The notes under the pieces: model-generated
Database searches by the model: none
What the model was told of the DNA's origin: nothing
What the model saw: only the letters and a program-made list of their open reading frames with translations
Source: Escherichia phage vB_EcoM_swi3
Sequence record: MT768059.1
Length of the DNA: 52,782 nucleotides
Reading direction: 5' to 3' (one strand)
Program-made: the position numbers and the translations under genes
Part shown: positions 205 to 43,938 of the stretch, one piece after another
Position numbering within the stretch: position 1 is the stretch's first letter
How the letters are laid out: each line of letters begins with the position of its first letter

Positions 205-636
205 ATGGTTAATATAAGACAGAAAGGACAGAACTTTGAGCGTAAAATGGCTAAGAAGTTCAATAGCTCGTTCGGATTAACTGTTGAGCGCAATCTTCAA
301 CAGTCTATTAATGGCGGGGATGACTTGCTGGGTGTACCGTTTTTCAGTGTTGAACTGAAGAAGCACAATACCAAGTCTATCGGAACATGGTGGAGACAGT
401 GTGCGGCATCGGCAAAGGCTCAGAACAAGATGCCGGTACTGATATACGAACTACCAAGAAAACAGCCTACCGTGGTGATGAATAAGGCTGATGTGATTGA
501 CTGTTTTCCAAGTGGCACGACTTTTAACGAGGCATCGAACCGCCTCTTTGTGGGTTTAGTAGAATTAACATGGGAACAATTTTGCCGGGTCTACAACTAT
601 TACGTTGCGCCCGGCACTCAATATCACGTCAATTAA
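205..636 (+). CDS. PD-(D/E)XK-fold nuclease, possibly Hjc/RecU-like Holliday junction resolvase
   Basis: 143 aa; N-terminal GQNFERK, then GGDDLL ... SVELKK matching D...(E)xK spacing of PD-(D/E)XK nucleases. Confidence 0.45.
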   Translation: MVNIRQKGQNFERKMAKKFNSSFGLTVERNLQQSINGGDDLLGVPFFSVELKKHNTKSIGTWWRQCAASAKAQNKMPVLIYELPRKQPTVVMNKADVIDCFPSGTTFNEASNRLFVGLVELTWEQFCRVYNYYVAPGTQYHVN

Positions 637-2785: not shown

Positions 2786-3355
2786 TTACTCTTCAGTTTC
2801 TTGTGCTTCAGTTTCAGGTTTTACTTCAGTATCAGGTTTTTTGCCAGTTACTGATTTGCCTTCGGTCACTTTACCAGATTTTACATCATTACGGTAGTAT
2901 GACATATATGACTGGATAACACGTTTTGCCTTAATATCATCCGCTTCCATTCCGCAAGCTTTCATCGCATCAGCGAGCGCCAATTTGGAGTCTTCCTTAT
3001 CCATCAGGTTGTAATCTTTGAACACCAGATAGCAGGTATCTTTAGTTGACGGACCAGATGACGATTTGCGAGAGCCACCAGCGGATGCTCGTGTTGTCGC
3101 AACTTTGACTTCTTCAACTTCCAGTTGGTTCAGCTCGTCAAACAAAGCCTTCACCAGCACTTCTTTGGAGTCTTTGACGCTTACAGTACTTTCATCATTA
3201 AGCGACTTAATCATCTTAATGATCTGGTTGTTGGCAAAGTACTGAAGACTATCCATCTGCACTACAATAGTGCCAAGACTTTCAGTAGTCAAACCAGATT
3301 TCACAGACTCGACAGAAAAAGCGGAAGTCAGGTAAACGTAGTTGATAGTTGTCAT
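2786..3355 (-). CDS. hypothetical protein with acidic C-terminal tail
   Basis: Start placed at internal ATG (3355) preceded by GAGGA; ORF-track start 3424 lies in palindrome GACAACTT..AAGTTGTC. Confidence 0.45.
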   Translation of the reverse strand: MTTINYVYLTSAFSVESVKSGLTTESLGTIVVQMDSLQYFANNQIIKMIKSLNDESTVSVKDSKEVLVKALFDELNQLEVEEVKVATTRASAGGSRKSSSGPSTKDTCYLVFKDYNLMDKEDSKLALADAMKACGMEADDIKAKRVIQSYMSYYRNDVKSGKVTEGKSVTGKKPDTEVKPETEAQETEE

Positions 3356-3450
3356 TTGATGTATCCTCGTTGATAGAATTTTTGATATGTGCCAATCCTT
3401 GGCAAGTAAGTCCAAACATGACAACTTTTGTCAAGTTGTCATGATTGAAA

Positions 3451-4370: not shown

Positions 4371-4588
4371 TTATTTTTTGGTATTTTCTCCTTATCAGGA
4401 CCAATCATCATCAGAGTGATACGACAGGAGCTAACCTTTTGCCTAACACAATAATAAGTGAAGCCCCTCTAAAATTTTTTTATATTTTTCGGAAATTGTG
4501 TAGACACTCACTAAAAAGTGGTGTACTTTCTCTCCTCCACGCGCTATCATTAATGTGAATCATCAAACGGCCTCACGGTCTCCTACTT

Positions 4589-5086
4589 GTGGGTAACATT
4601 ATGAAAATTGTTCAATTAGAGCCATATCCGCCTCAATTGGCTATCGTTTGCAGCGAAAAAGAGCACGAAGAGCTCCAAAAACTGATGGATTTGCCTGATT
4701 TTGGCAACTGGAATGACCGAGAAACACGTACTGCATCTACCTTTACGTTCTCTCGCGTTAATTATCCGTACCTGTTAATTGTCGTCGAACTGTACCACCC
4801 GGACGACCTGAAGTACAACACCATTTCCCACGAAGGCATTCACGTAATGTCGTCGCTGATGAACTATGTTGGCCTTAAATACGACCCAGAAAACGATGAA
4901 TGGTACGCATATCAGCATGATTTCATCGTAAATGCCATTTGTAAGGCCCATGACGAGTACATTGAGCGCCAAAAAACGCCAAAAACTAAGCCAAAAATCG
5001 AAACAGGTAACCATCCTGCAATACTGCCACAAGACGTTATGAACTCGCTTTTGACTGACACTACTGGGGACTTTTTAGGTGATTAA
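4589..5086 (+). CDS. hypothetical protein with HExxH motif (possible small zinc metallopeptidase)
   Basis: 165 aa; motif ISHEGIHV; first gene of rightward block. Confidence 0.4.
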   Translation: MGNIMKIVQLEPYPPQLAIVCSEKEHEELQKLMDLPDFGNWNDRETRTASTFTFSRVNYPYLLIVVELYHPDDLKYNTISHEGIHVMSSLMNYVGLKYDPENDEWYAYQHDFIVNAICKAHDEYIERQKTPKTKPKIETGNHPAILPQDVMNSLLTDTTGDFLGD

Positions 5087-5753
5087 TATTATCTTTGCAA
5101 TGGGCCAAAATGGGGAATTCGGGTTATCTCCGGAGTTTATGAAGCATCAGGTTGACTCGTGCAAGACCATGGAAGAGGTTCGTGCACTTCCTAAATCGGG
5201 TCTACCCTGGAAATGTCAGTCAGACATGCTCTTTTTCAGGACTATGACTAATTCAATTGCGACAGAACCAGGCTATAATGCATATCAGCAACTACGTGGA
5301 CAATTCCCAAATGACCAGTTGCGAAACATGATAGCAGATGTAACGGTAAAAATGGTCGGACATAGTGTATTGTTAGCCGGTCGTAAAACGTATATGACTA
5401 TGAGTCTGCCTATGTCAGCCCACAGAATACTGCTGCCGGTATCTCGCCAGATTATGGCTTCAGAAGGCTACAATAATCTGGGTGAGATGGCCGCAGACCT
5501 TGAGTCCAGAGGTACTGACGTCTGGATTGTAGGGGGTGCCGAGTTGATACTTTCGGCCCTTGAAGAACACGCAAAAGACTTACTCCGTATCGACAACATG
5601 TTTATCAGTACGATCAAGCAATCAGGTCCAAGTGATATTTTAATGGATTGTAGCAAATTAATGATGTACATTGATAGCGACTTCACTTATAATGATGAAT
5701 ATGTTGATAACAAACAAGTGCTGATACAACGCTACAGGAGTTTACACAAATGA
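5079..5753 (+). CDS. dihydrofolate reductase-like protein
   Basis: 224 aa; LPW, GRKTY and VGGAEL blocks match DHFR conserved blocks (compare E. coli FolA, T4 Frd), with insertions; GTG start. Confidence 0.65.
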   Translation: MINIIFAMGQNGEFGLSPEFMKHQVDSCKTMEEVRALPKSGLPWKCQSDMLFFRTMTNSIATEPGYNAYQQLRGQFPNDQLRNMIADVTVKMVGHSVLLAGRKTYMTMSLPMSAHRILLPVSRQIMASEGYNNLGEMAADLESRGTDVWIVGGAELILSALEEHAKDLLRIDNMFISTIKQSGPSDILMDCSKLMMYIDSDFTYNDEYVDNKQVLIQRYRSLHK

Positions 5754-6256
5754 ACATCATAATCGAGGGGCCCGACAATGCTGGTAAAAGTACACTTATT
5801 GAGTTCCTTAAATCTCGTACTGGCCGCGATGTTATTCATAATACTGTTGATAAAGACCCCGAATCGGTCATGGCTAAACAGGCCAAAGAAAACGCGTTGG
5901 AAGGCAATTGCATTTATGACCGTAGCGCTGTTATATCTGAGTATATCTATTGTCTGGTTCTTCAACGTACGCCTGTCATCAATATTAATGTATCACATGT
6001 AGCAGATATGTGTGACAACGCCATCGTTATCTTTTGTATGCCACCTGTTGAAAAGGTACTGGCAACTACAAAAGACGAGATGCCTGGTGTTGTGGAAAAT
6101 CTTGAGGCGTTATACAATCAGTATGACAACCTCATTGACGAGCTGGTTATGATGAGTAAGCAGTTCTTCATTTACGACTGGACTGTTGAAGAAGACGGTC
6201 CTGAAGCAGTTCTCGAATATATCAACGAACGTATTAATAAGGAGTGGAACAAATGA
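5750..6256 (+). CDS. thymidylate kinase-like dNMP kinase
   Basis: 168 aa; P-loop IIIEGPDNAGKST and YDRS motif as in Tmk (IVIEGLEGAGKTT / DRH). Confidence 0.7.
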   Translation: MNIIIEGPDNAGKSTLIEFLKSRTGRDVIHNTVDKDPESVMAKQAKENALEGNCIYDRSAVISEYIYCLVLQRTPVININVSHVADMCDNAIVIFCMPPVEKVLATTKDEMPGVVENLEALYNQYDNLIDELVMMSKQFFIYDWTVEEDGPEAVLEYINERINKEWNK

Positions 6257-7733: not shown

Positions 7734-9182
7734 ATGAATCTTGACTTTCACCTGCATGACAGACAAGGTGCCGCTCTGCAGTCTCAGGCAACTGAGATTC
7801 TATACGGTGGTGCTGCTGGTGGTGGTAAGTCTCACCTTATGCGTGTAATGTCAATTATCATGTGCTGCATGATACCTGACTTGCAGATTTACCTTTTCCG
7901 CCGAAACTATAACGACCTTACGGCTAACCATATGGTTGGTCCCACAAGTTATCCTGCCTTGCTGGACGGTATGTGCAAAGCTGGCAAGTGCAAGATTAAC
8001 TACTCGAGCAACACGATTAAATTCTGGAACGGTGCGAACATCAAGCTCTGCCACCTCCAGTACGAAAAAGATATTTATACATACCAGGGTGCGGAGATTC
8101 ACGTTCTGCTGATGGATGAGCTTACTCACTTCACAGAAACGATGTACCGCTTCTTGCGTAACCGTGTCCGACTCGGTGCTCTCAAAGTCCCTGAGAACTT
8201 TTTCCGGCCACTGCCACTCATCTTTTGTGGGTCAAACCCCGGTGGGGTTGGTCACAACTGGGTTAAGCGCACTTTTGTAACTGCTGCTCCTCCGATGAAA
8301 ATCGTTAAGCAGGAAAAACGCGAAGGCGGTATGGCGCGTCAGTACATTCCGGCTAAGATGACTGATAACCCTACGCTGATGGAAAACGACCCTGACTACG
8401 GTGACCGTCTTGAAGGTCTTGGTGACCCGGCTCTTGTTGCTGCGATGAAAGAGGGTGACTGGGATATTGTTGCTGGTGGTGCGCTTGACGACGTATGGTC
8501 AACCAAGTGTATTCTGCCGCGTATGCGTATTCCGAAAGGCTGGACTATCGAACGTTCTCTCGACTGGGGGTCTACTCACCCGTTCTCTGTTGGTATCTGG
8601 GCTATTGCAAATGGTGCCTCGCTTACAGACGACGAAGGCAATGAGTACTTTATTCCGCGTGGTTCAATTATACGTATAGCTGAATGGTATGGGTGCTCTG
8701 AAAAAGAAGCTAACAGGGGTATTAAATTATCTGCTGCCGAAGTCGCTCAAGGTATTATTCGTCTACAGGAAAATCTGCAGGCTGGTGGCTGGATTCAAAG
8801 CAACGTTAATCCTGGTCCGGCAGATAGTCAGATTTATGCGTGCAAGGAAAAAGACGTCGAGACTATCGCGAAGAAAATGGAAGACGAAGGCGTAACCTGG
8901 GTCAAGGCCGACAAGTCGCAAGGTTCGAGAATAAATGGCTTAGAGCTATTCCGTCAGCTTCTGAAAAATGTTAAGATGGACGAAACGGAAAAGCCGGGCA
9001 TTTATTTCATGGAAAACTGTCCAGCAGCCATAAACACGTTGCCGGTTCTGCCGCGTGACAAGAACAACACGGAAGATGTCGACACGAACTCTGAAGACCA
9101 CGTATACGATGATTGTCGTTACATGGTGTTGCGTGGCATCAACCGTTATACTACCAAGCTCAAAATAAATATGGGACGGTAA
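7734..9182 (+). CDS. terL: terminase large subunit
   Basis: 482 aa; Walker A-like LYGGAAGGGKSH, Walker B-like LLMDELTH, C-terminal nuclease-sized domain. Confidence 0.8.
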   Translation: MNLDFHLHDRQGAALQSQATEILYGGAAGGGKSHLMRVMSIIMCCMIPDLQIYLFRRNYNDLTANHMVGPTSYPALLDGMCKAGKCKINYSSNTIKFWNGANIKLCHLQYEKDIYTYQGAEIHVLLMDELTHFTETMYRFLRNRVRLGALKVPENFFRPLPLIFCGSNPGGVGHNWVKRTFVTAAPPMKIVKQEKREGGMARQYIPAKMTDNPTLMENDPDYGDRLEGLGDPALVAAMKEGDWDIVAGGALDDVWSTKCILPRMRIPKGWTIERSLDWGSTHPFSVGIWAIANGASLTDDEGNEYFIPRGSIIRIAEWYGCSEKEANRGIKLSAAEVAQGIIRLQENLQAGGWIQSNVNPGPADSQIYACKEKDVETIAKKMEDEGVTWVKADKSQGSRINGLELFRQLLKNVKMDETEKPGIYFMENCPAAINTLPVLPRDKNNTEDVDTNSEDHVYDDCRYMVLRGINRYTTKLKINMGR

Positions 9183-32722: not shown

Positions 32723-33229
32723 GTGCTCGCTATCATCGGGCTTGTATTGTCGATGACAAGTACGCATGTACGTACTAATAAAGAAGGTCTTGAAATAATC
32801 GGTAATGCAGAAGGTTGTATGCGCAACCCGTATGTATGCCCTACTGGTTATTTAACAGTTGGCATTGGTAGCCGCATCTACAGCGATGAGCCCGCTGTAC
32901 GGCGCGAAGGCCTGACAGACCAGGAGATTGCTGACCGCTGGGTCAAGAATATTCAAGAGGCCGAAAAATGTGTTAATGACTGGTTCCACGGTAAAGATAT
33001 GAACACGAACCAGTTCAGCGCCATGACCTCTATGGTATTTAACCATGGTTGCACTAGACTCCGTAAGAACAAGGATGGTTCACCTACCAAAATATATACT
33101 GCTGCTCGTAAACAAAACTGGACTGAAATGTGTAACCGCATAACGGACTGGGATATGGGTGGTAAGTACAGGGGCTTGACAATACGTAAGCAAAAGGAAA
33201 AAGCGCTATGTCTAAAACCGGTGCAATAA
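32723..33229 (+). CDS. endolysin, T4-lysozyme-like (GH24) with hydrophobic N-terminus
   Basis: GTG start after AGGAGG; KEGLE ... YLTVGIG block resembling T4 lysozyme E11/T26 region with a Cys-containing insertion; N-terminal LAIIGLVLSMTS. Confidence 0.7.
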   Translation: MLAIIGLVLSMTSTHVRTNKEGLEIIGNAEGCMRNPYVCPTGYLTVGIGSRIYSDEPAVRREGLTDQEIADRWVKNIQEAEKCVNDWFHGKDMNTNQFSAMTSMVFNHGCTRLRKNKDGSPTKIYTAARKQNWTEMCNRITDWDMGGKYRGLTIRKQKEKALCLKPVQ

Positions 33230-33537: not shown

Positions 33538-33739
33538 TAAACCTGAAGTTGTTTATGTTGACAGGGTAGTCAAGGTTTATCCGCCTGGTGCGTACCTGGT
33601 TAAATGCCATAAACCTGAATTAACAGGTAACACCTGGAAGGCAATAGGTCAGTTAGCTATTGAACGTGGAACAGCTCTTGATGATTGTGCAGACAAGATG
33701 GACAGCATAATTAACTGGAGTAACAAAGGGGCCGAGTGA
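33464..33739 (+). CDS. putative o-spanin (lipoprotein), overlapping i-spanin
   Basis: Signal-like MTKRQNMIRALIPLLLLPFLNSC with lipobox-like LNSC; starts in +1 frame inside i-spanin. Confidence 0.45.
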   Translation: MTKRQNMIRALIPLLLLPFLNSCADKPEVVYVDRVVKVYPPGAYLVKCHKPELTGNTWKAIGQLAIERGTALDDCADKMDSIINWSNKGAE

Positions 33740-33754
33740 TGGCCCCTTTATTTG
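33728..33754. terminator. rho-independent terminator between convergent blocks
   Basis: GGGGCC-gagtgat-GGCCCC then TTTATTT. Confidence 0.6.
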
Positions 33755-33755
33755 A

Positions 33756-34034
33756 TTAAGCCTGCAGGAAGCCTGGGAACATATCAGCGCGTAAAGCAGC
33801 GCCCTTCAGTAACCAGATTTGGTCTTTAGCCTGTGCAAGCGCATTGTCCTGAGCTACTTGTTTGCCGATGTCTGCATTGAACTCTGCAGGGTCAACACAA
33901 CCAGAAGTACCTACACCTAACTGGAAGCCATCCAGCGTTGCCACACATACAGTTACAGTTGTATTCGGTACCTGCCAGAAATGATACTCCAGTTTATCAA
34001 CAAGAGCATTAACTTCTTTAAAATCTACTTTCAT
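33756..34034 (-). CDS. hypothetical protein
   Basis: 92-aa ORF. Confidence 0.4.
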   Translation of the reverse strand: MKVDFKEVNALVDKLEYHFWQVPNTTVTVCVATLDGFQLGVGTSGCVDPAEFNADIGKQVAQDNALAQAKDQIWLLKGAALRADMFPGFLQA

Positions 34035-34258
34035 TATCGCTTTCCTTTCTTCTCGTTATACTGCGCGCAGGATGCACACAATACTGTACCGGGTAAGAGC
34101 TGACGTCGTTTCTCTTCAATGTCTTCCCCACACTGGTAGCACGTCAGCGGGCTTACGCCTGTGTATCTGACACGGTTCGACAGCGCTGCGTCCCGGGCAA
34201 CTTGCTCAGCTTCAGAAGCCATATCAGTAATGTCCGATGTGCGCATAGTCTCAATCAT
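34034..34258 (-). CDS. TraR/DksA-type C4 zinc-finger protein
   Basis: 74 aa; CxxC ... CxxC (CYQCGEDI ... CASCAQ). Confidence 0.55.
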   Translation of the reverse strand: MIETMRTSDITDMASEAEQVARDAALSNRVRYTGVSPLTCYQCGEDIEEKRRQLLPGTVLCASCAQYNEKKGKR

Positions 34259-34533
34259 TATTTTCCCTCTTCTTCACAATACAGGGTTTCTAATTCATCG
34301 CATAGCTGTTGCGTCCAGTAATCATCCTCACCACGTATCTGGAAGCACAGCACAGGAATATCCTGTCGTAAAATATCGCTCTTGTAAATCTTTTTGGCAA
34401 CAGCTTCTGGTTCTTCCTGGAATATCCTCATAAACCAGTCCAGGCCTGACGTGCAGCCTGAGGCGTCTAGTATCTCCTTCGCCCTTAACTTAAGCGTTTC
34501 ATCTACCTCATACTCTAAACCTATCTTAGACAT
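34258..34533 (-). CDS. hypothetical protein
   Basis: 91-aa ORF. Confidence 0.4.
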   Translation of the reverse strand: MSKIGLEYEVDETLKLRAKEILDASGCTSGLDWFMRIFQEEPEAVAKKIYKSDILRQDIPVLCFQIRGEDDYWTQQLCDELETLYCEEEGK

Positions 34534-34548
34534 ATTATAGACCTTTAA

Positions 34549-36516
34549 TTAGTGTGCCTCTGCCCAGTTACTTTCTATCTTAGCATCAGTAAGAACAGGT
34601 ACACGAAGCGGTAGTACAGTTTCCATGACCCGTACGAAATCATAGAATCCATCTTCTGCTTGCTTACCAGTTGGTAGAGAGAAGTTAAGCTCATCGTGTA
34701 CCGTCAGGCGAGGTACGCCAATCACGTCAAAGTAACCGTCTTCATACCCTTTCAGCATTGCAGACTTCATCTGGTCTGCTGACGACCCTTGCAGCACTCG
34801 GTTGATTGCTTTGTGGGTGTCTGCCAGTTTAATGTTTGGACCATACTCCTGACGTGCTTCTTCAAATGGTAAAGGCGTCTTCCCGAATCCACCACGTTTT
34901 GGTACCCATTTGTTGAACCACGTCTTCCGGCCCATAAATGTTTCTACATACCCCTGGCTATAACATAAATCTTCATAATGCTTCATGGTAGCACCAATGA
35001 ATGGTGCACCCTGATGGTACGCCTTCAGAACAGGTTCTGCTTCTTCAGGCGTCATTGCTAACTTACGGGCAAGAGCATTAAGCATCATGCCGTACAACAA
35101 ACCAAAGTTGATGGTCTTAGCCGGTTTACGCTCTATAACGTGACCTGAGGCTTCCTTGATAATATCGACCATAACATTGTGGTAATCTGCTTCCGGGTTA
35201 GCCGCGAAAATTGCTCGTAACTCATCAGCGCCCGGGCCGACTGCAAAATGCGCCATGAATCGATATTCAATTTGGGCGTAGTCTGCTGATCCCCATCTGT
35301 GTCCGACATCCGGTACGAAACAAGCACGAAGGAGTGGTCCCAGTATTTTGTGTCGAGACGGTATATTCTGCAGATTAGGGTCAGATGAGCTAAACCTACC
35401 ACTAACGGTTCCGCCGTCATCACCGCGCATTTGATGGAATTGACCGTGAAGGAAGCCATTTGTATTCATCCCCAATATATAGCCACGAATAAACGTGGAC
35501 TGGATTTTCTCATAAGACTTAATTTCAGACACCAGTTCCGCAAACGGATGGTGCAAGCCTGCTAAGAAGTCTGCCGTAAACGATGGATTGCCCGCCGCTG
35601 TTCTGAAGTACTCCAGACCTAAATGGTCAAATGCAAGAGCTAAGTCCGGACCTGAGTTAACGTTAATGTTAAAACCAATCTGGTCTTTAATCTGCTGGTG
35701 CATTTTCCTTATTTCAGCGCTAAGCGTATCATCCGCCTCTTTGGCTTTGTCAAGGTCAACACGCACACCTGCAAAACGCATCTTAAGCATTAATGGAATA
35801 AGCTTGCACTCCATATAGAATACGTCTGTTAAACACCAGCGACTTAACAATGGCCACTGGGCTTTGATAATGTGTATTGGTAAGTCGGCGTCAGATTCAG
35901 CATAGTAACCCACAAGACGAGGAGGCGTTTTGTAGATGTACTTTCTGGCTTCACCTGTTGGCTTACAGCCATAAGCATCTGAAATCCATTGGTACATCTC
36001 GGCTGAGTCTTTACCTTCGCCTACATACTTTCGTCCAAGTCCTTCAAGTGCAACACGCGCGCCTGGGTCGAGTAATGCTTCCGCGAATTGTACATCCATG
36101 CACAATCCTTTAACTTCCACGCCTTCTGCTGCAAGCCAGCCCAAGTCATATGTGATGTTAGCACCGACTTTAACTTGGTTAGGTCGCGAGAGTTCGAGCC
36201 GAAGCCAACCAAGTACTTCCTCAGCTGGAAGGTTATCCTCTTCGCCGAGCTCGTGTCTGATTGGGTAGTAAGCTTTGAAGCCGTTGTCCGTAGCGATACT
36301 AACTCCAACGATATGACCCTCCCTCCTGGCCCAACCACTACCATTTGTATCCATCCCTGGGTCGTATGTTTCACAGTCAAGACCGATAATCTTTGCAGAA
36401 GACAAGTCCGGGTAATGCGCGCGCGGCCGCCATCCAGTATCCCTGACGTATGGTATAGGACGGTTGATAGGTTTAACATTCTTTGCACCTTCGAAGCTAT
36501 CGAATAAAAAGCTCAT
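34549..36516 (-). CDS. DNA polymerase, family A, with 3'-5' exonuclease domain
   Basis: 655 aa; exo motif GLDCETYDP; Pol A motif A DYAQIEYR, motif B RKPAKTINFGLLYGM, motif C VHDEL. Confidence 0.9.
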   Translation of the reverse strand: MSFLFDSFEGAKNVKPINRPIPYVRDTGWRPRAHYPDLSSAKIIGLDCETYDPGMDTNGSGWARREGHIVGVSIATDNGFKAYYPIRHELGEEDNLPAEEVLGWLRLELSRPNQVKVGANITYDLGWLAAEGVEVKGLCMDVQFAEALLDPGARVALEGLGRKYVGEGKDSAEMYQWISDAYGCKPTGEARKYIYKTPPRLVGYYAESDADLPIHIIKAQWPLLSRWCLTDVFYMECKLIPLMLKMRFAGVRVDLDKAKEADDTLSAEIRKMHQQIKDQIGFNINVNSGPDLALAFDHLGLEYFRTAAGNPSFTADFLAGLHHPFAELVSEIKSYEKIQSTFIRGYILGMNTNGFLHGQFHQMRGDDGGTVSGRFSSSDPNLQNIPSRHKILGPLLRACFVPDVGHRWGSADYAQIEYRFMAHFAVGPGADELRAIFAANPEADYHNVMVDIIKEASGHVIERKPAKTINFGLLYGMMLNALARKLAMTPEEAEPVLKAYHQGAPFIGATMKHYEDLCYSQGYVETFMGRKTWFNKWVPKRGGFGKTPLPFEEARQEYGPNIKLADTHKAINRVLQGSSADQMKSAMLKGYEDGYFDVIGVPRLTVHDELNFSLPTGKQAEDGFYDFVRVMETVLPLRVPVLTDAKIESNWAEAH

Positions 36517-37511
36517 CAGTCCCCTCTAACATACGCAATTACAACTGTACGAGTTGAGTTTTCCATTTTGAGCGCCTGACTACCCAGTCCTATTCTTTCC
36601 ATGCCTTTAGCCAGTTTACTCATCTGACTAATAACACAGTTGAACGGTTTACTAAACTTAGTCGACTGGAACTTAATGTCGACGGACATCTTTGGAATAA
36701 TCTTATCTGGTAAGTCTGCCTTTGCAGTTGACTCGCCTGTTATCTCCAGAATAGCCTGACCTTCGTCGTACCCAGTAAGCTGGTCCATGACTTCCAGGAA
36801 CTCAGGAGTGATGGCCTGCATATCCATTTCCATATTGAAGAACTTCGATACGTCTGGCCATTTGGCTGCTAGTACCGGAGCATCCATCTGTACACCATCC
36901 GCAAAGCCGAAGAACATCTGGCCGCGGGCGTATCCTACACTTGTGGGTTCCATCTTCAGCTTAACCAGAGCCTCAAGCATTGGTTTGGCTATGGCACATT
37001 CAAATTCAAAATCTACGTTCAACTTCTCGCGTATCATATACTTACCGTTAGTGGCGTAAGCATAACCATCGCGCAGAAGTAAAGATGTCGCCCATACCTG
37101 CGGTGCTTCGTTAGGTACCCACTTGGCTAAGGCAGTTAATACCGGGAGTAATTCGCCATGCGCTGAATACCAGTTGTTAACTGTAGCAAGTGGCGGTATT
37201 GGTTCATTAAGCGCTTGCATTCTTGTTTTAAGTACACCTGCTGTGACTGTGAGGTTTCCAGCGGCTGTAATGTTAAAAGTAATCTGTTCAGTTCTTGCCG
37301 CATTAACGGCCTTACGAAATGATTCAGCATCCACTTGCAGGTCTGGAAATCCTTTACATGGCGCTCGTAGTAATACGTTCTTGTAGTATGAATGGATTGT
37401 TCCGTCTGCAATCCATATTTTGCCCATAAGACCACTATCAGTATACTTGATGGGACGAGCTTGTTGAACGGCAGTCTGTATTTGTTTGGTGTCATAGTTA
37501 AACTTGCTCAT
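36516..37511 (-). CDS. hypothetical protein (replication/modification accessory candidate)
   Basis: 331-aa ORF between polymerase and TS homolog; no motif recognised. Confidence 0.5.
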   Translation of the reverse strand: MSKFNYDTKQIQTAVQQARPIKYTDSGLMGKIWIADGTIHSYYKNVLLRAPCKGFPDLQVDAESFRKAVNAARTEQITFNITAAGNLTVTAGVLKTRMQALNEPIPPLATVNNWYSAHGELLPVLTALAKWVPNEAPQVWATSLLLRDGYAYATNGKYMIREKLNVDFEFECAIAKPMLEALVKLKMEPTSVGYARGQMFFGFADGVQMDAPVLAAKWPDVSKFFNMEMDMQAITPEFLEVMDQLTGYDEGQAILEITGESTAKADLPDKIIPKMSVDIKFQSTKFSKPFNCVISQMSKLAKGMERIGLGSQALKMENSTRTVVIAYVRGD

Positions 37512-37541
37512 AGTATAACGGGGCCGAAGCCCCGCTCCATC

Positions 37542-38426
37542 TTATACGGCCATTTGGAGTTTGATGTTTGGCATTGGTTTGTACTTCTCAACCATTGGCG
37601 TAACATCGGCAGGAGTGAAGTCAAACACTGACACGTCATAAATTGCATTAATGTCAGGACGACCTTCAAAGTTAGTGTCCAGTGTAGTATCAGAATTGCT
37701 TACGATACGTTGCAGGAAAATCTTTGCCGCATCGATATGATTCTGATAGATGTGATAATCACCCAGCGTAACAGTCATATCACCTACCCCAGTACCCAGC
37801 TCAGCAGCAATGGTAATCTGCAACATCTGATGCAACAGAATATCGTGAGGCAGACCAAGGATAACATCCGCGCTACGCATGTGGAACATCAGCTCTAATT
37901 CATTACGGTTGTTAATGAACAGCTGAAAACCATGGTAACAAGGCGGAAGGGCCATGGCGTCCATCTCTTGTGGGTTCCATGCCGTAATGTATGCCCGGCG
38001 GTCAGTAGGCTTAACCTTCAGCGTTTCAATAACGTCTTTAAGCTGGTTAGTAAGAACACCATTCTTATAGAATGGCTTAATCCATTGCACGCCGTACACA
38101 GGACCTAAGTCACGATTGTCTGGTGTACCCCAACGTTTGTTTGCATCCTGCAGGTTACCTTCCCACCAGTTGCAGCCAAAGCCTTTGAGTGTGTCGACGT
38201 TTGAAATGCCGTTGATAAAGCAGTAAAGCTCAGCAGCAACAGCTTTGATGTTAACAGGTTTAAATACCGGCACCATCAGTTTGTTGTCGTTAAAAGCCAG
38301 CTTAAACGCTGTACCAAAACAACGGCGTGTACCAACACCTGTACGGTCTACAACATCCTCGCCTTTACGCAGGATAAAAGAAATGATGTCGCTGTAAAGA
38401 GAATCGACAGTGCTGTATGTTTTCAT
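37542..38426 (-). CDS. thymidylate synthase-family enzyme with Asp at uracil-specifying position (putative dCMP C5-hydroxymethylase or -methyltransferase)
   Basis: 294 aa; DRTGVGT, DLGPVYG, catalytic-Cys motif ALPPCY, RSADVILGLPHD, GDYHIYQNH; ThyA N177 equivalent is D195 (codon at 37842..37844). Confidence 0.8.
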   Translation of the reverse strand: MKTYSTVDSLYSDIISFILRKGEDVVDRTGVGTRRCFGTAFKLAFNDNKLMVPVFKPVNIKAVAAELYCFINGISNVDTLKGFGCNWWEGNLQDANKRWGTPDNRDLGPVYGVQWIKPFYKNGVLTNQLKDVIETLKVKPTDRRAYITAWNPQEMDAMALPPCYHGFQLFINNRNELELMFHMRSADVILGLPHDILLHQMLQITIAAELGTGVGDMTVTLGDYHIYQNHIDAAKIFLQRIVSNSDTTLDTNFEGRPDINAIYDVSVFDFTPADVTPMVEKYKPMPNIKLQMAV

Positions 38427-39019
38427 TAAAACAGTTCCTTTTGAGCCGGGTTAACGTGTGCGTCGATGATGGCCTGGATGTCAGGTGCTTTCCATCCTTC
38501 AGGCTTAACAATATCCTGACCAGACTTATGCTTGCTGTTGCTTGCATCAGGCTTAGCGCGTTCTTTCGCCATGTTAGCAGCCTGTACAGCATCCCATGCT
38601 GCGTCAAGTGGCCAGTTGTTGTTTGCACACCAGGTAATCAGGTGGATAATTAACTGGGCCAGACGGTCGCAATGAGTGTCTTCAGTATCCTTAACGTATA
38701 CAATAAGGCCATCAGCATCGAAACGGTCCATAAATCCGCATGGCGTAGTTAACAGAATAGGATACTCAAATTCGTTGGTGAACCATGCAGTCTGGTCATA
38801 CAGGTATAACGTACCTGCAGCGATGTAAATTAAATCTACAATACCGTCTAAGAATCCAGCTTTATCGCCGTCCTTCTTAGCTTGTTTAATTTCTTCCATC
38901 TCCTCAATAAGACGGTCGTAGCGAAGCTTGAACTCAGGTTTACCGCCTTGACTAACAGGCTTGAGGTCAAACTTCTCATGAAAAGCGGTAACGCCTGCAG
39001 CAATTTTACTGAATCGCAT
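38426..39019 (-). CDS. putative MazG-like (all-alpha) nucleoside triphosphate pyrophosphohydrolase
   Basis: ~197 aa from ATG at 39019 after GGAG; EExxE motif (LIEEMEEI) and downstream acidic helix (DGIVDLIY). Confidence 0.45.
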   Translation of the reverse strand: MRFSKIAAGVTAFHEKFDLKPVSQGGKPEFKLRYDRLIEEMEEIKQAKKDGDKAGFLDGIVDLIYIAAGTLYLYDQTAWFTNEFEYPILLTTPCGFMDRFDADGLIVYVKDTEDTHCDRLAQLIIHLITWCANNNWPLDAAWDAVQAANMAKERAKPDASNSKHKSGQDIVKPEGWKAPDIQAIIDAHVNPAQKELF

Positions 39020-39404
39020 TTCGTAACTCCTTACAAACAGTTTCGATAAACTTACGTTTAATTTCTGTAGACCAGATAACATGACGAGCCTGTTCTAAAG
39101 TGTCCCAACGTTCTTTACCCACAGGAAAGGGAACAATGAAAAGGCCGGTACGGGATATGCGCTTGATAAACGGGAATTTACATCGCATGGTTGTTTCAAA
39201 CTTGATAAAGTTGGTTTGCACTTCGCGTGTAAACTTGACCTTATCAAATTCATGTTCAAGAGTTTGAGCAAGGTTGCATACTTCCTGGAAAGAAGATGTG
39301 GGTAAGTAATCTTCGCGGCCGACGGTGTTCACGTAGTCGATTTGGCCTTCGAGTCGAAGTATCCAAATCCTGTAATAAGCTTCAGCAACACGTTGTAGGT
39401 TCAT
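39006..39404 (-). CDS. hypothetical protein
   Basis: 132-aa ORF downstream of promoter 39431..39459. Confidence 0.45.
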   Translation of the reverse strand: MNLQRVAEAYYRIWILRLEGQIDYVNTVGREDYLPTSSFQEVCNLAQTLEHEFDKVKFTREVQTNFIKFETTMRCKFPFIKRISRTGLFIVPFPVGKERWDTLEQARHVIWSTEIKRKFIETVCKELRNAIQ

Positions 39405-39430
39405 TGTATCTCTCCTCTAAAAGATAACTT

Positions 39431-39459
39431 ATTATACCACATCACTCTCTAGTGGTAAA
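39431..39459 (-). promoter_or_regulatory. sigma70-like promoter with extended -10 (TTTACC-N17-TATAAT, TGG upstream of -10)
   Basis: Reverse complement reads cTTTACCACtagagagtgatgTGGTATAAT. Confidence 0.5.
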
Positions 39460-39480
39460 GCACTTTTTACGCTTCTGGTA

Positions 39481-39515
39481 AAATAAAAAGGACCAGCGTT
39501 AACTGGTCCTTTTGG
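39481..39515 (-). terminator. rho-independent terminator
   Basis: GGACCAG-cgttaa-CTGGTCC hairpin; minus strand reads TTTTTATTT after the stem. Confidence 0.6.
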
Positions 39516-40079
39516 CAGGGTGGCGTAAGGAGATACAAGGCATCGTAACTATGCAACCAGGCAGCGCATATGAGATTGGCCAAAAGACTTACCATTTTAA
39601 TCCCCGCGACGAGACGAAAGGAGGTGTTATCGAGTAGCCAATCACATATGCGTTACTTGCTGTGTGCTCTTACCGCGGAAAGTATAGAGCGTTGCACTTA
39701 TCACACCGATGGAGTGGCAAAAGCACACAGCGAGTACAACCTTAGTTGTGGTGTCTTAGCACCTGAGTTATTGTGGATAACCTGCACCCGACGGGTGTCA
39801 AAAAGATACGCCAAAACACCACAACTAAAATTGTGACCGCCGTCTACACCAGGCGCCTGGGGTCAAGGTAGCGAGCCAATACCCTTTTCAGCGTCGGAGG
39901 AATCGAACCTCACACATCACGGCTTTTACCAAATCTCGGTCAGCGAGCAGAATTGAACTGCATTCACTGGACACCCTCACTGTTTCAACACACCAGGCTT
40001 AATTGATTGTTGATAAGAAGAGAGATGTAAGGATGTCCATTGAATGCACCTCCGTAGAGGTGCGTTCAGATCAGCGCTA

Positions 40080-42590: not shown

Positions 42591-43469
42591 TTATTTTAAG
42601 GAAAGTTTAACGGGCTTCTCATCCTGCGGGAAGACATCAGCAGGGCGATAATCATCACAAGCTGCTAATTGCTCTTCGATTGTTTCGAGTTCTTTCTGGT
42701 GCTTGTTGCAATACCACACTTTGCCCTGAAGCGGTTTACTGTAATGGCAGGTTCTGCAGTTCCTGTCTGGCATTGCCCCTTTGTGGCACAGGTGATGGTA
42801 TTCGCACATCCCTGGTTTGCACTCCCACCAAATAGGCGATTCAGAAATCTTCGGCATATCCAAACCAGATTCCGCATATACAACAGCCTCCGCTTTACTC
42901 AGTTGTATGTCGCTTTCCAGTAAGTCAATCTCGACCACTTCAAAATACATCTCGTCAGTGTTCTTATTGATTGCAATGTACACAGCTTGATTCAGCTTAA
43001 GCTTCCGCATGTATACCTGCATCTGGGCGTAGTGTACCGGCTTACTTGCTTTAACAGACTTGAGCTTGACTAACTCCTTAAACGACTTATCGCCATGCGT
43101 CTTGAACTCAGCAAGTGCCCATACGCCTTTGTATTTAATTACACAGTCACAAGACCCAGAGAAGATGTCATTGAATTCGTGTATGCGCCACTGCTTACCA
43201 GTCTTGGGATTGACGTCCAGCACTTCGTCACATACGGTGCGAAGCCACTTTACAATTCTGCTTTCTTCAAGGTTACCACGTTCAAACAGACGAAGTTGCT
43301 TAGCCGAAAACTTCTCCTTGAACGACCAGTGCAGAACGTGCCAAAGATAGCGATAGCAGTTGTGTCCTATCTGCGATGCTCCAAGATGCCCGCGTCGTTC
43401 TTCTCTTTCGTGGGCTTCGACTATCTTGATGTCAATACGTTTCTGCAGGTCGTCAAACGGACTTGGCAT
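42591..43469 (-). CDS. PD-(D/E)XK nuclease, Cas4/RecB-like, with C-terminal Cys cluster
   Basis: Start at ATG 43469 after GGAG; motif D ... EFK (DCVIKYKGVWALAEFK); C-terminal CKPGMCEYHHLCHK ... CRTCH. Confidence 0.55.
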   Translation of the reverse strand: MPSPFDDLQKRIDIKIVEAHEREERRGHLGASQIGHNCYRYLWHVLHWSFKEKFSAKQLRLFERGNLEESRIVKWLRTVCDEVLDVNPKTGKQWRIHEFNDIFSGSCDCVIKYKGVWALAEFKTHGDKSFKELVKLKSVKASKPVHYAQMQVYMRKLKLNQAVYIAINKNTDEMYFEVVEIDLLESDIQLSKAEAVVYAESGLDMPKISESPIWWECKPGMCEYHHLCHKGAMPDRNCRTCHYSKPLQGKVWYCNKHQKELETIEEQLAACDDYRPADVFPQDEKPVKLSLK

Positions 43470-43938
43470 TGTTAAACTCCTCAACGCTGAATTCATCGTA
43501 TACAATATTATGTGCCCACAAATGGGCGACGGCATTTGCCATACTGTCTTTCCATTTGGATTGTGAAGCTGTATGAGCCAATGCAACTACCCGAACCAGG
43601 TTAAGGTTGGCTATCAGCATATCTGCACAATGTTCGCACGGCGGGTAGGTTATGTAGATGGTAACCGGGCCTAATGAAGGAGTGTCTAACTCTCTCCTTA
43701 TATTAGCTAAGGTGTTTATCTCGCTATGAATAGTTAGAGCGTTCTTAAGGCTATTAGGCACTATTCTTATAGAGTCTAACTGCGTAGGCAGACCATTATA
43801 TCCAGTGGAAATAATACGCTTGTTCTGGTCCACAAGAACGCTACCGACTTGACGTTTCGGGTCCTTCGACCAGCTCGCAACTTCACAAGCTATGCGCATA
43901 AACCGCCTGTCCCACTTGTCCATCTTCTTCTTTTGCAT
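43453..43938 (-). CDS. dCMP deaminase
   Basis: 161 aa; zinc-binding HSE and PCEHC motifs of CMP/dCMP deaminases. Confidence 0.8.
   Translation of the reverse strand: MQKKKMDKWDRRFMRIACEVASWSKDPKRQVGSVLVDQNKRIISTGYNGLPTQLDSIRIVPNSLKNALTIHSEINTLANIRRELDTPSLGPVTIYITYPPCEHCADMLIANLNLVRVVALAHTASQSKWKDSMANAVAHLWAHNIVYDEFSVEEFNNAKSV

Follow-up and report, generated by a model that had tools for sequence, protein, structure and literature searches.

The genome of Escherichia phage vB_EcoM_swi3 (record MT768059.1; its 52,782 nucleotides (nt) are referred to as the window) encodes, between a thymidylate-synthase (TS) homolog and a family-A DNA polymerase, a protein of 331 amino acids (aa) that, judging from its structural model, almost certainly has the three-domain fold of the bacterial sliding clamp DnaN. 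The protein probably acts as the processivity clamp of the adjacent polymerase. This assignment is already known as an annotation. What is still of interest is that a family-A polymerase is paired with a bacterial-type β clamp, with no detectable phage loader and a conserved peptide at the N-terminus of the polymerase, in a large family that has been annotated by similarity only.

Fold and homology of the 331-aa protein

Curated domain libraries and single-sequence searches were blank, so that profiles and structure were needed to see the clamp homology. Neither Pfam nor NCBIfam matched the protein even at E≤1, the DnaN models (DNA_pol3_beta, _2 and _3; dnaN) included, and a phmmer search against the PDB returned nothing at E≤10. 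The remark in the initial annotation that no motif was recognisable was therefore fair. PHROG 947, "DNA polymerase processivity factor", aligned with residues 1-328 over profile positions 2-351 of 368 (E=1.9e-47, 163 bits). A profile of 16 sequences (A1), derived from 20 homologs found by a word-indexed search, matched Deinococcus DnaN (4trt) with E=1.3e-5 in hmmsearch and aligned with E. coli DnaN in hhalign over 288 columns across all three domains (91.5% probability, E=8.7e-7). The same initial annotation placed the gene in no described family, which is wrong: besides its membership in PHROG 947, GenBank proteins of 99-100% identity (from BP63, brunost and SPLA11) are named "DNA polymerase beta subunit" or "DNA polymerase processivity factor", and a genome paper on a sister genus also names the gene polymerase beta subunit (PMC7432712).

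The AlphaFold2 model calculated from the A1 alignment had a mean predicted local distance difference test (pLDDT) score of 90.7 and a predicted template modelling (pTM) score of 0.83. Its secondary structure comprises six successive β-α-β-β-β units, corresponding to three clamp domains in one chain. The best 50 Foldseek matches in the PDB were all bacterial DnaN proteins (E about 1e-18, TM 0.74-0.81), and the matches among the viral models of BFVD were phage β clamps, Rosemountvirus "DNA polymerase beta subunit" entries among them. Of the two roles initially proposed on the basis of position, that of a processivity factor folded like a ring clamp thus gained support at the level of fold, homology (PHROG 947, DnaN profiles) and context (synteny).

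The second proposed role was that of an accessory enzyme that would modify bases, as a transferase or kinase with the modified pyrimidine from the TS homolog as its substrate. Its appeal is positional, as the gene adjoins a TS homolog that probably acts on dCMP, and phage S144 of the sister genus has cytosine-modified DNA that resists cutting at C-containing restriction sites, with the responsible gene not identified (PMC7432712). However, structure prediction, the check suggested at the time, yielded a confident model without an enzyme fold: all strong structural matches were sliding clamps, with no glycosyltransferase, kinase, methyltransferase or other enzyme fold among them. Neither a nucleotide-binding nor a catalytic motif was seen, Pfam and NCBIfam gave no enzyme match, and the family adjoins polymerases in phages with quite different modification genes or none. 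We regard this role as extremely improbable. The neighbouring TS homolog may well be a modification enzyme itself, as had been assumed, but this is uninformative on the function of the clamp gene. A structural virion protein, a match to which had been named as refuting evidence, was rejected in view of the unambiguous fold and of the position of the gene within the replication operon. As a consequence, a gene labelled "hypothetical protein" in the related record OM313460.1 (vB_EcoM_IntR, 52,782 bp, with coinciding coordinates) becomes a confidently assigned replication protein and leaves the list of candidate DNA-modification enzymes.

A151, A153, W218, P219, W140, A141 and others are invariant or nearly so in A1, and the distant subfamily carries "ATNN", "WPD" and "DASRPWA" at the equivalent places. 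In the hhalign alignment, A153-T154-N155-G156 pairs with A171-T172-D173-G174 of E. coli DnaN, W218-P219-D220 with F241-P242-D243 and the region of W140 with R152-Y154. These segments of E. coli β form the walls of the hydrophobic cleft, at the junction of domains II and III, in which partner proteins bind. What has stayed constant over very long evolutionary distances is thus the partner-binding site, which fits a tethering function.

The clamp-polymerase pair and its terminal peptides

The family is large. An exhaustive hidden Markov model (HMM) search of 1.84 billion representatives returned 3437 clusters at E≤1e-3, of which 551 also passed E≤1e-30; almost all are 310-330 aa long, and homologs of the 331-aa protein span 17-86% identity. 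Cultured phages with a member belong to the genera Rosemountvirus, Loughboroughvirus, Nonagvirus, Seuratvirus, Septimatrevirus, Titanvirus and Kleczkowskavirus or infect Vibrio, Xanthomonas, Stenotrophomonas, Synechococcus and Achromobacter; the annotations read "DNA polymerase beta subunit", "replicative clamp" or "processivity factor". A survey from 2011 reported that phages of this genome size typically have no clamp homologs (PMC3201878), which is no longer true given the present counts. All nine nucleotide differences between the clamp gene and its copy in OM313460.1 are synonymous, and 13 differences from BP63 result in two amino-acid changes, a pattern from which the gene is judged to be under purifying selection. 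The synonymous differences, together with the range of homologs and the number of clusters, identify the ORF (open reading frame) as a genuine gene rather than a chance ORF.

Association with the polymerase gene is nearly universal. In all 14 loci inspected by hand (the window and 13 others from at least 11 genera, phage and metagenome), the clamp homolog lies directly 5′ of a polymerase gene of 655-720 aa, frequently with a stop/start overlap, and four further metagenomic Rosemountvirus-like loci have the same order. The PHROG 947 members BP63 gp54, 9g gp2, Ab26 ORF27 and RHEph04 gp47 are of the same HMM family and occupy the same place. A search of IMG/VR with a sub-alignment of 8 sequences gave 80 loci, 77 of which had usable downstream sequence. 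A polymerase homolog followed on the same strand in 77/77 and was the very next ORF in 59; in the remainder, small inserted ORFs or an over-extended ORF call stood between the two. About 15 IMG/VR loci have such small ORFs, with gaps of 300-1100 nt. The inserted ORF of locus L091 (about 4505-5060), which begins MRVITGIYCIRNTITGSVYIGSSKNI, looks like a GIY-YIG homing endonuclease.

In the window, the overlap of the clamp ORF with the polymerase gene, noted from the outset, was borne out by the ORF listing and by the single base shared in TGATG. A Shine-Dalgarno sequence, GAGGGG, is located within the 3′ end of the 331-aa ORF, and the overlap suggests translational coupling of the two genes. Clamp-polymerase junctions also overlap or abut in ZCSE2, 9g, Skure, VpKK5, Ssp-JY38 and L006. 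The polymerase itself is recognised by Pfam (DNA_pol_A, 4.7e-63; DNA_pol_A_exo1, 6.9e-8).

A candidate for the physical link between the two proteins is the extreme N-terminus of the polymerase. The window polymerase starts with MSFLFDSFE, and MSFLF[DE]xFE is found in seven Rosemountvirus-like lineages with clamp identities down to 48%; an eighth such lineage has MLFENF. Among the IMG/VR polymerases, 75/77 carry an N-terminal [DP]xxG[MLFI]FW, in which G, F and W are invariant among 48 distinct peptides. Next come a variable linker rich in Lys and Pro and then, before the ExoI motif, the conserved anchor RPxPxIPxTGW. Where the Queuovirinae-type polymerase has DxxG[MLF]FW, the Rosemountvirus-like enzyme has MSFLFDxFE. 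The 120 closest polymerase homologs include a graded series of peptides (MRFDSIGMFWED, MGLFWDEDEK, MSLFWDLNDK, MLFEDFINQ and MSFLFDSFEG), and these intermediates indicate that the window peptide, with its "LF" core, derives from this same N-terminal element.

The type of peptide changes along with the clamp subfamily. The polymerases of the window and of Vibrio phage VpKK5 are about 50% identical, whereas their clamps share only about 21%, and Rosemountvirus-like clamps in general are only 17-25% identical to Queuovirinae and Septimatrevirus members. Polymerases of the Septimatrevirus, Titanvirus and Pfeifenkraut types have no N-terminal peptide and instead end in ...ALSFF, ...ASLF or ...ATMFF. 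In an AlphaFold2 model of the window polymerase (48-sequence alignment, pLDDT 88.7), residues 1-14 were the only segment with pLDDT below 50. Strong conservation combined with lack of structure, at a chain terminus attached by a flexible linker, typically marks a short linear binding motif, and the clamp-binding motifs of bacteria are LF-type peptides, QL[SD]LF. On these grounds we propose a docking role for the peptide; that residues 1 to about 9 are the clamp-docking motif is put at an even chance.

Some longer, distant clamps of 363-408 aa end in ...EDDIPF, ...DDEIPF or ...PDDIPF, namely those at 3842-5005 of L011 (Ab26), 3845-5071 of L014 (RcTitan) and 3420-4511 of L064. These tails resemble DDDIPF, the C-terminal tip of E. 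coli SSB. The Ab26 polymerase ends in ...ALSFF and that of RcTitan in ...ASLF, both without the N-terminal motif, and the L064 polymerase keeps it. The clamp of the window has no such tail. In those that do, it could draw in host binders of this tip, such as the χ subunit of the clamp loader.

Tethering, loading and alternative roles

The best explanation, which we consider likely as a whole, is that the 331-aa protein, a highly diverged DnaN-type homolog, would by analogy with DnaN form a head-to-tail homodimeric ring around duplex DNA. It would confer processivity on the family-A polymerase of the phage, encoded directly downstream and translationally coupled. The polymerase would dock its flexible N-terminal peptide (MSFLFDSFE...) into the cleft between clamp domains II and III, with a Lys/Pro-rich linker joining this LF-type peptide to the exonuclease domain. 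Of this scheme, the analysis shows the fold, the homology, the conserved synteny and the conservation and predicted disorder of the N-terminal peptide, whereas the dimeric ring, the binding of the peptide in the cleft, the stimulation of processivity and the mode of loading are the parts that we infer. A precedent for the partnership is E. coli Pol I, a family-A enzyme that is stimulated by β, as cited in PMC3201878.

By analogy, the protein is functionally a phage counterpart of DnaN or gp45. It is similar to the gp45-gp43 pair of T4 and RB69, in which a phage-encoded clamp tethers the phage polymerase by a short terminal hydrophobic peptide; that of gp43 is C-terminal. Thioredoxin bound to T7 gp5, likewise of family A, and the herpesvirus proteins UL42/UL44 are other loader-free routes to processivity of a viral polymerase. 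In contrast to bacterial DnaN (E. coli 2POL, Eubacterium rectale 3T0P), the phage clamp is about 35 residues shorter and near-neutral instead of acidic, it is missed by the Pfam DnaN models, its partner is a family-A polymerase and not Pol III α, and no cognate loader gene was detected in the same genome.

Several points weigh against a polymerase-bound ring. Identity to DnaN is only 9-14%, in addition to the absence of a Pfam DnaN domain even at E≤1. The polymerase peptide agrees with the bacterial QL[SD]LF motif only at its LF core, and its role is inferred from conservation alone. Literature searches for experiments on phage DnaN-like clamps paired with family-A polymerases brought up genome annotations and the computational survey of 2011, but neither biochemistry nor structures of the family. 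Furthermore, no clamp loader or γ/δ-like AAA+ ORF came to light in the phage when its replication and early ORFs were scanned with PHROG and Pfam and all ORFs for Walker A motifs. These scans gave a primase, an SF2 helicase, a Cas4-like exonuclease, a Sak4-like ATPase, RusA and an SSB (the last from the BP63 annotation) as well as a dCMP deaminase, a dihydrofolate reductase (DHFR), a TMP-kinase-like protein and ORFs without assigned function. A Walker A motif occurred in five ORFs only: a 212-aa ORF (2786..3424), the TMP-kinase-like protein, a 482-aa ORF (7734..9182; not scanned, taken by us to be the terminase large subunit), the Sak4-like ATPase and the primase. Finally, the clamp has a theoretical isoelectric point (pI) of 7.6 and a net charge of +1, compared to pI values of 5.25 for E. 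coli β and 4.89 for gp45.

With no recognisable phage loader, a ring would have to be loaded by the clamp-loader complex of the host, slip onto DNA at its ends or open spontaneously. Alternatively, a clamp-fold processivity subunit, monomeric or a C-shaped dimer, might not close into a ring at all; like UL42/UL44, it would contact DNA directly through a basic surface and hold the polymerase there without any loader. The missing loader gene is consistent with this, as is a charge well above that of ring clamps, with a pI of 9.6 for domain I alone. Moreover, Kazlauskas and Venclovas noted that viral clamp homologs without a loader tend to have a raised pI and proposed that they may bind DNA directly as non-ring factors (PMC3201878); by this criterion, the pI of 7.6 slightly favours direct DNA binding without a loader. 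Acidic proteins nevertheless prevail in the wider family, with a median pI of 5.6 and 9% of members above pI 7. We consider a non-ring factor unlikely. Candidate modes are a ring that the host γ/τ complex loads, entry by way of DNA ends, and direct binding by a partly open form.

A further alternative holds that the protein mimics the β clamp and that its main role is not processivity. It could be a hub or decoy that captures host clamp-binding proteins (Pol III, δ, MutS/L, Hda) in a takeover of the host, or a mobile activator of late transcription like T4 gp45. Conservation is highest in the cleft motifs, which could bind host "LF" motifs as well as those of the phage, and T4 gp45 has a second, transcriptional role according to its annotation (see also PMC2988020). 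However, neither the near-universal synteny and translational coupling with the polymerase nor a polymerase peptide that changes with the clamp subfamily is expected of a host-directed decoy, which makes this alternative quite improbable.

A broader reading covers the family as a whole. A minimal replicase of two genes may exist in phages of 40-65 kb, in which a β-type clamp works with a family-A polymerase and no dedicated loader, and the polymerase is tethered by an LF peptide, typically at its extreme N-terminus, that co-evolves with the clamp. The tether would be DxxGhFW in Queuovirinae-like phages, MSFLFDxFE in the phage studied here and a C-terminal ...SFF or ...SLF in Septimatrevirus- and Titanvirus-like phages. 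Loading would occur by a hijacked host γ/τ complex or by self-loading, and the SSB-like DDIPF tails on the clamps of some relatives hint that host binders of the SSB tip are recruited. Taken jointly, these propositions are tentative, with a chance somewhat short of even. If they are true, the two-gene replicase is a mechanistically undescribed assembly of a processive replicase and widespread (more than 3400 protein clusters).

Operon layout, possible cytosine modification and related genomes

On the coding strand, the genes follow each other in the order gp57-like gene, MazG-like pyrophosphohydrolase, TS homolog, 30-nt spacer, clamp, polymerase and three small genes (features in Table 1). The TS homolog (37542..38426, minus strand) ends 30 nt 5′ of the clamp gene, which is thus located downstream of TS and upstream of the polymerase. 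A promoter candidate, matching the position of an annotated promoter in BP63, would drive the genes from the gp57-like gene through the MazG-like gene, the TS homolog and the clamp to the polymerase. The hairpin that closes the operon has an equivalent in BP63 that is annotated as a rho-independent terminator.

Table 1. Coordinates of the clamp-polymerase locus in the window
Feature	Position	Strand	Remarks
Coding sequence, 331-aa β-type (DnaN-like) sliding-clamp homolog	36516..37511	minus	ATG start; sole long ORF there (ORF listing)
Clamp domains of the 331-aa protein	residues ~1-110, 111-225, 226-331		two β-α-β-β-β units each
Coding sequence, 655-aa family-A DNA polymerase, presumed clamp partner	34549..36516	minus	3′-5′ exonuclease and polymerase domains
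TGATG stop/start overlap of clamp and polymerase genes	36514..36518	minus	one base shared (sequence read); clamp TGA 36518-36516, polymerase ATG 36516-36514; coding strand ...GGGGAC-TGATG-AGC
Polymerase codons 1-14 (MSFLFDSFEGAKNV), N-terminal LF peptide	36475..36516	minus	conserved, predicted disordered; proposed clamp-binding motif
TS-clamp intergenic spacer, 30 nt	37512..37541	minus	GGAG 37535-37538; UUCG-loop hairpin 37519-37534; 7 nt to ATG
Sigma-70-like promoter candidate	39431..39459	minus	TTTACC-17-TATAAT with TG; consensus scan, consensus match only
Bidirectional terminator-like hairpin closing the leftward clamp and polymerase operon	33725..33749	both	scan

The spacer between TS and clamp contains no Shine-Dalgarno sequence at normal distance from the clamp ATG, as read from the sequence. 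Its hairpin is GC-rich with a C(UUCG)G loop and folds with −16.3 kcal/mol (z=−3.4). The layout of GGAG, hairpin and 7-11 nt to the ATG recurs with differing stems in six distinct lineage sequences (−14.5 to −17.1 kcal/mol, z from −2.5 to −4.2), and a U-tract follows the stem on its 3′ side in 4/6. These hairpins were judged on individual folds, the MAFFT alignment of the spacers being out of structural register. Two functions are conceivable for the element, a structured "split" ribosome-binding site and a weak terminator or attenuator. Split ribosome-binding sites are known from genes 38 and 25 of T4.

The mechanical call of the MazG-like ORF (38426-39082, minus strand, 218 aa) overlaps the upstream gene (39006-39404, minus strand) by 77 nt. 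GenBank records start this gene at 39019 (197 aa), and the shorter start is probably correct.

In the TS homolog, an Asp ("GLPHDI") occupies the position of Asn177 of E. coli ThyA and a Tyr that of His147, with retention of the catalytic Cys and of a TS-like C-terminus (…QMAV). The equivalent of Asn177 is Asp in six of seven Rosemountvirus-like lineages and Asn in the seventh, and a change from Asn177 to Asp switches TS from dUMP to dCMP (PMC8670742). The window also encodes DHFR, the TMP-kinase-like protein, the dCMP deaminase and the MazG-like enzyme (genes at 5079-5753 plus, 5750-6256 plus and 43453-43938 minus, with the MazG-like one at 38426-39082 minus). These observations, with the restriction resistance of S144 DNA, suggest that the TS homolog is a dCMP methylase or hydroxymethylase and that the virion DNA is C-modified; methylation is favoured because DHFR is present and the C-terminus is TS-like. 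Together, the Asn-to-Asp switch and the accompanying DHFR, TMP-kinase-like, dCMP deaminase and MazG-like genes offer a concrete genetic explanation for the cytosine modification in the sister genus, a lead that may be more useful than the clamp assignment.

In seven other loci (L004, L006, L012, L013, L015, L016 and L017), DNA-modification genes stand directly upstream of the clamp-polymerase pair. The set in these phages consists of the 7-deazaguanine genes FolE, QueD, QueE and QueC with a DpdA/tgt-like gene, a place that the TS homolog occupies in Rosemountvirus-like phages. The arrangement looks like a recurring module of modified-nucleotide supply followed by a replicase.

The window is a Rosemountvirus genome similar to Salmonella phage BP63. 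A megablast search with positions 34000-39500 listed 20 records of Salmonella and Escherichia phages, each with 96.7-98.6% identity at 99-100% query cover. Several other phages are nearer to the window (98.6%) than vB_EcoM_IntR, the record of which is described as a draft (PMC9343928). Between positions 33000 and 40500, 234 of 7501 positions differ from OM313460.1 with no indel, and the differences cluster at 38000-39999.

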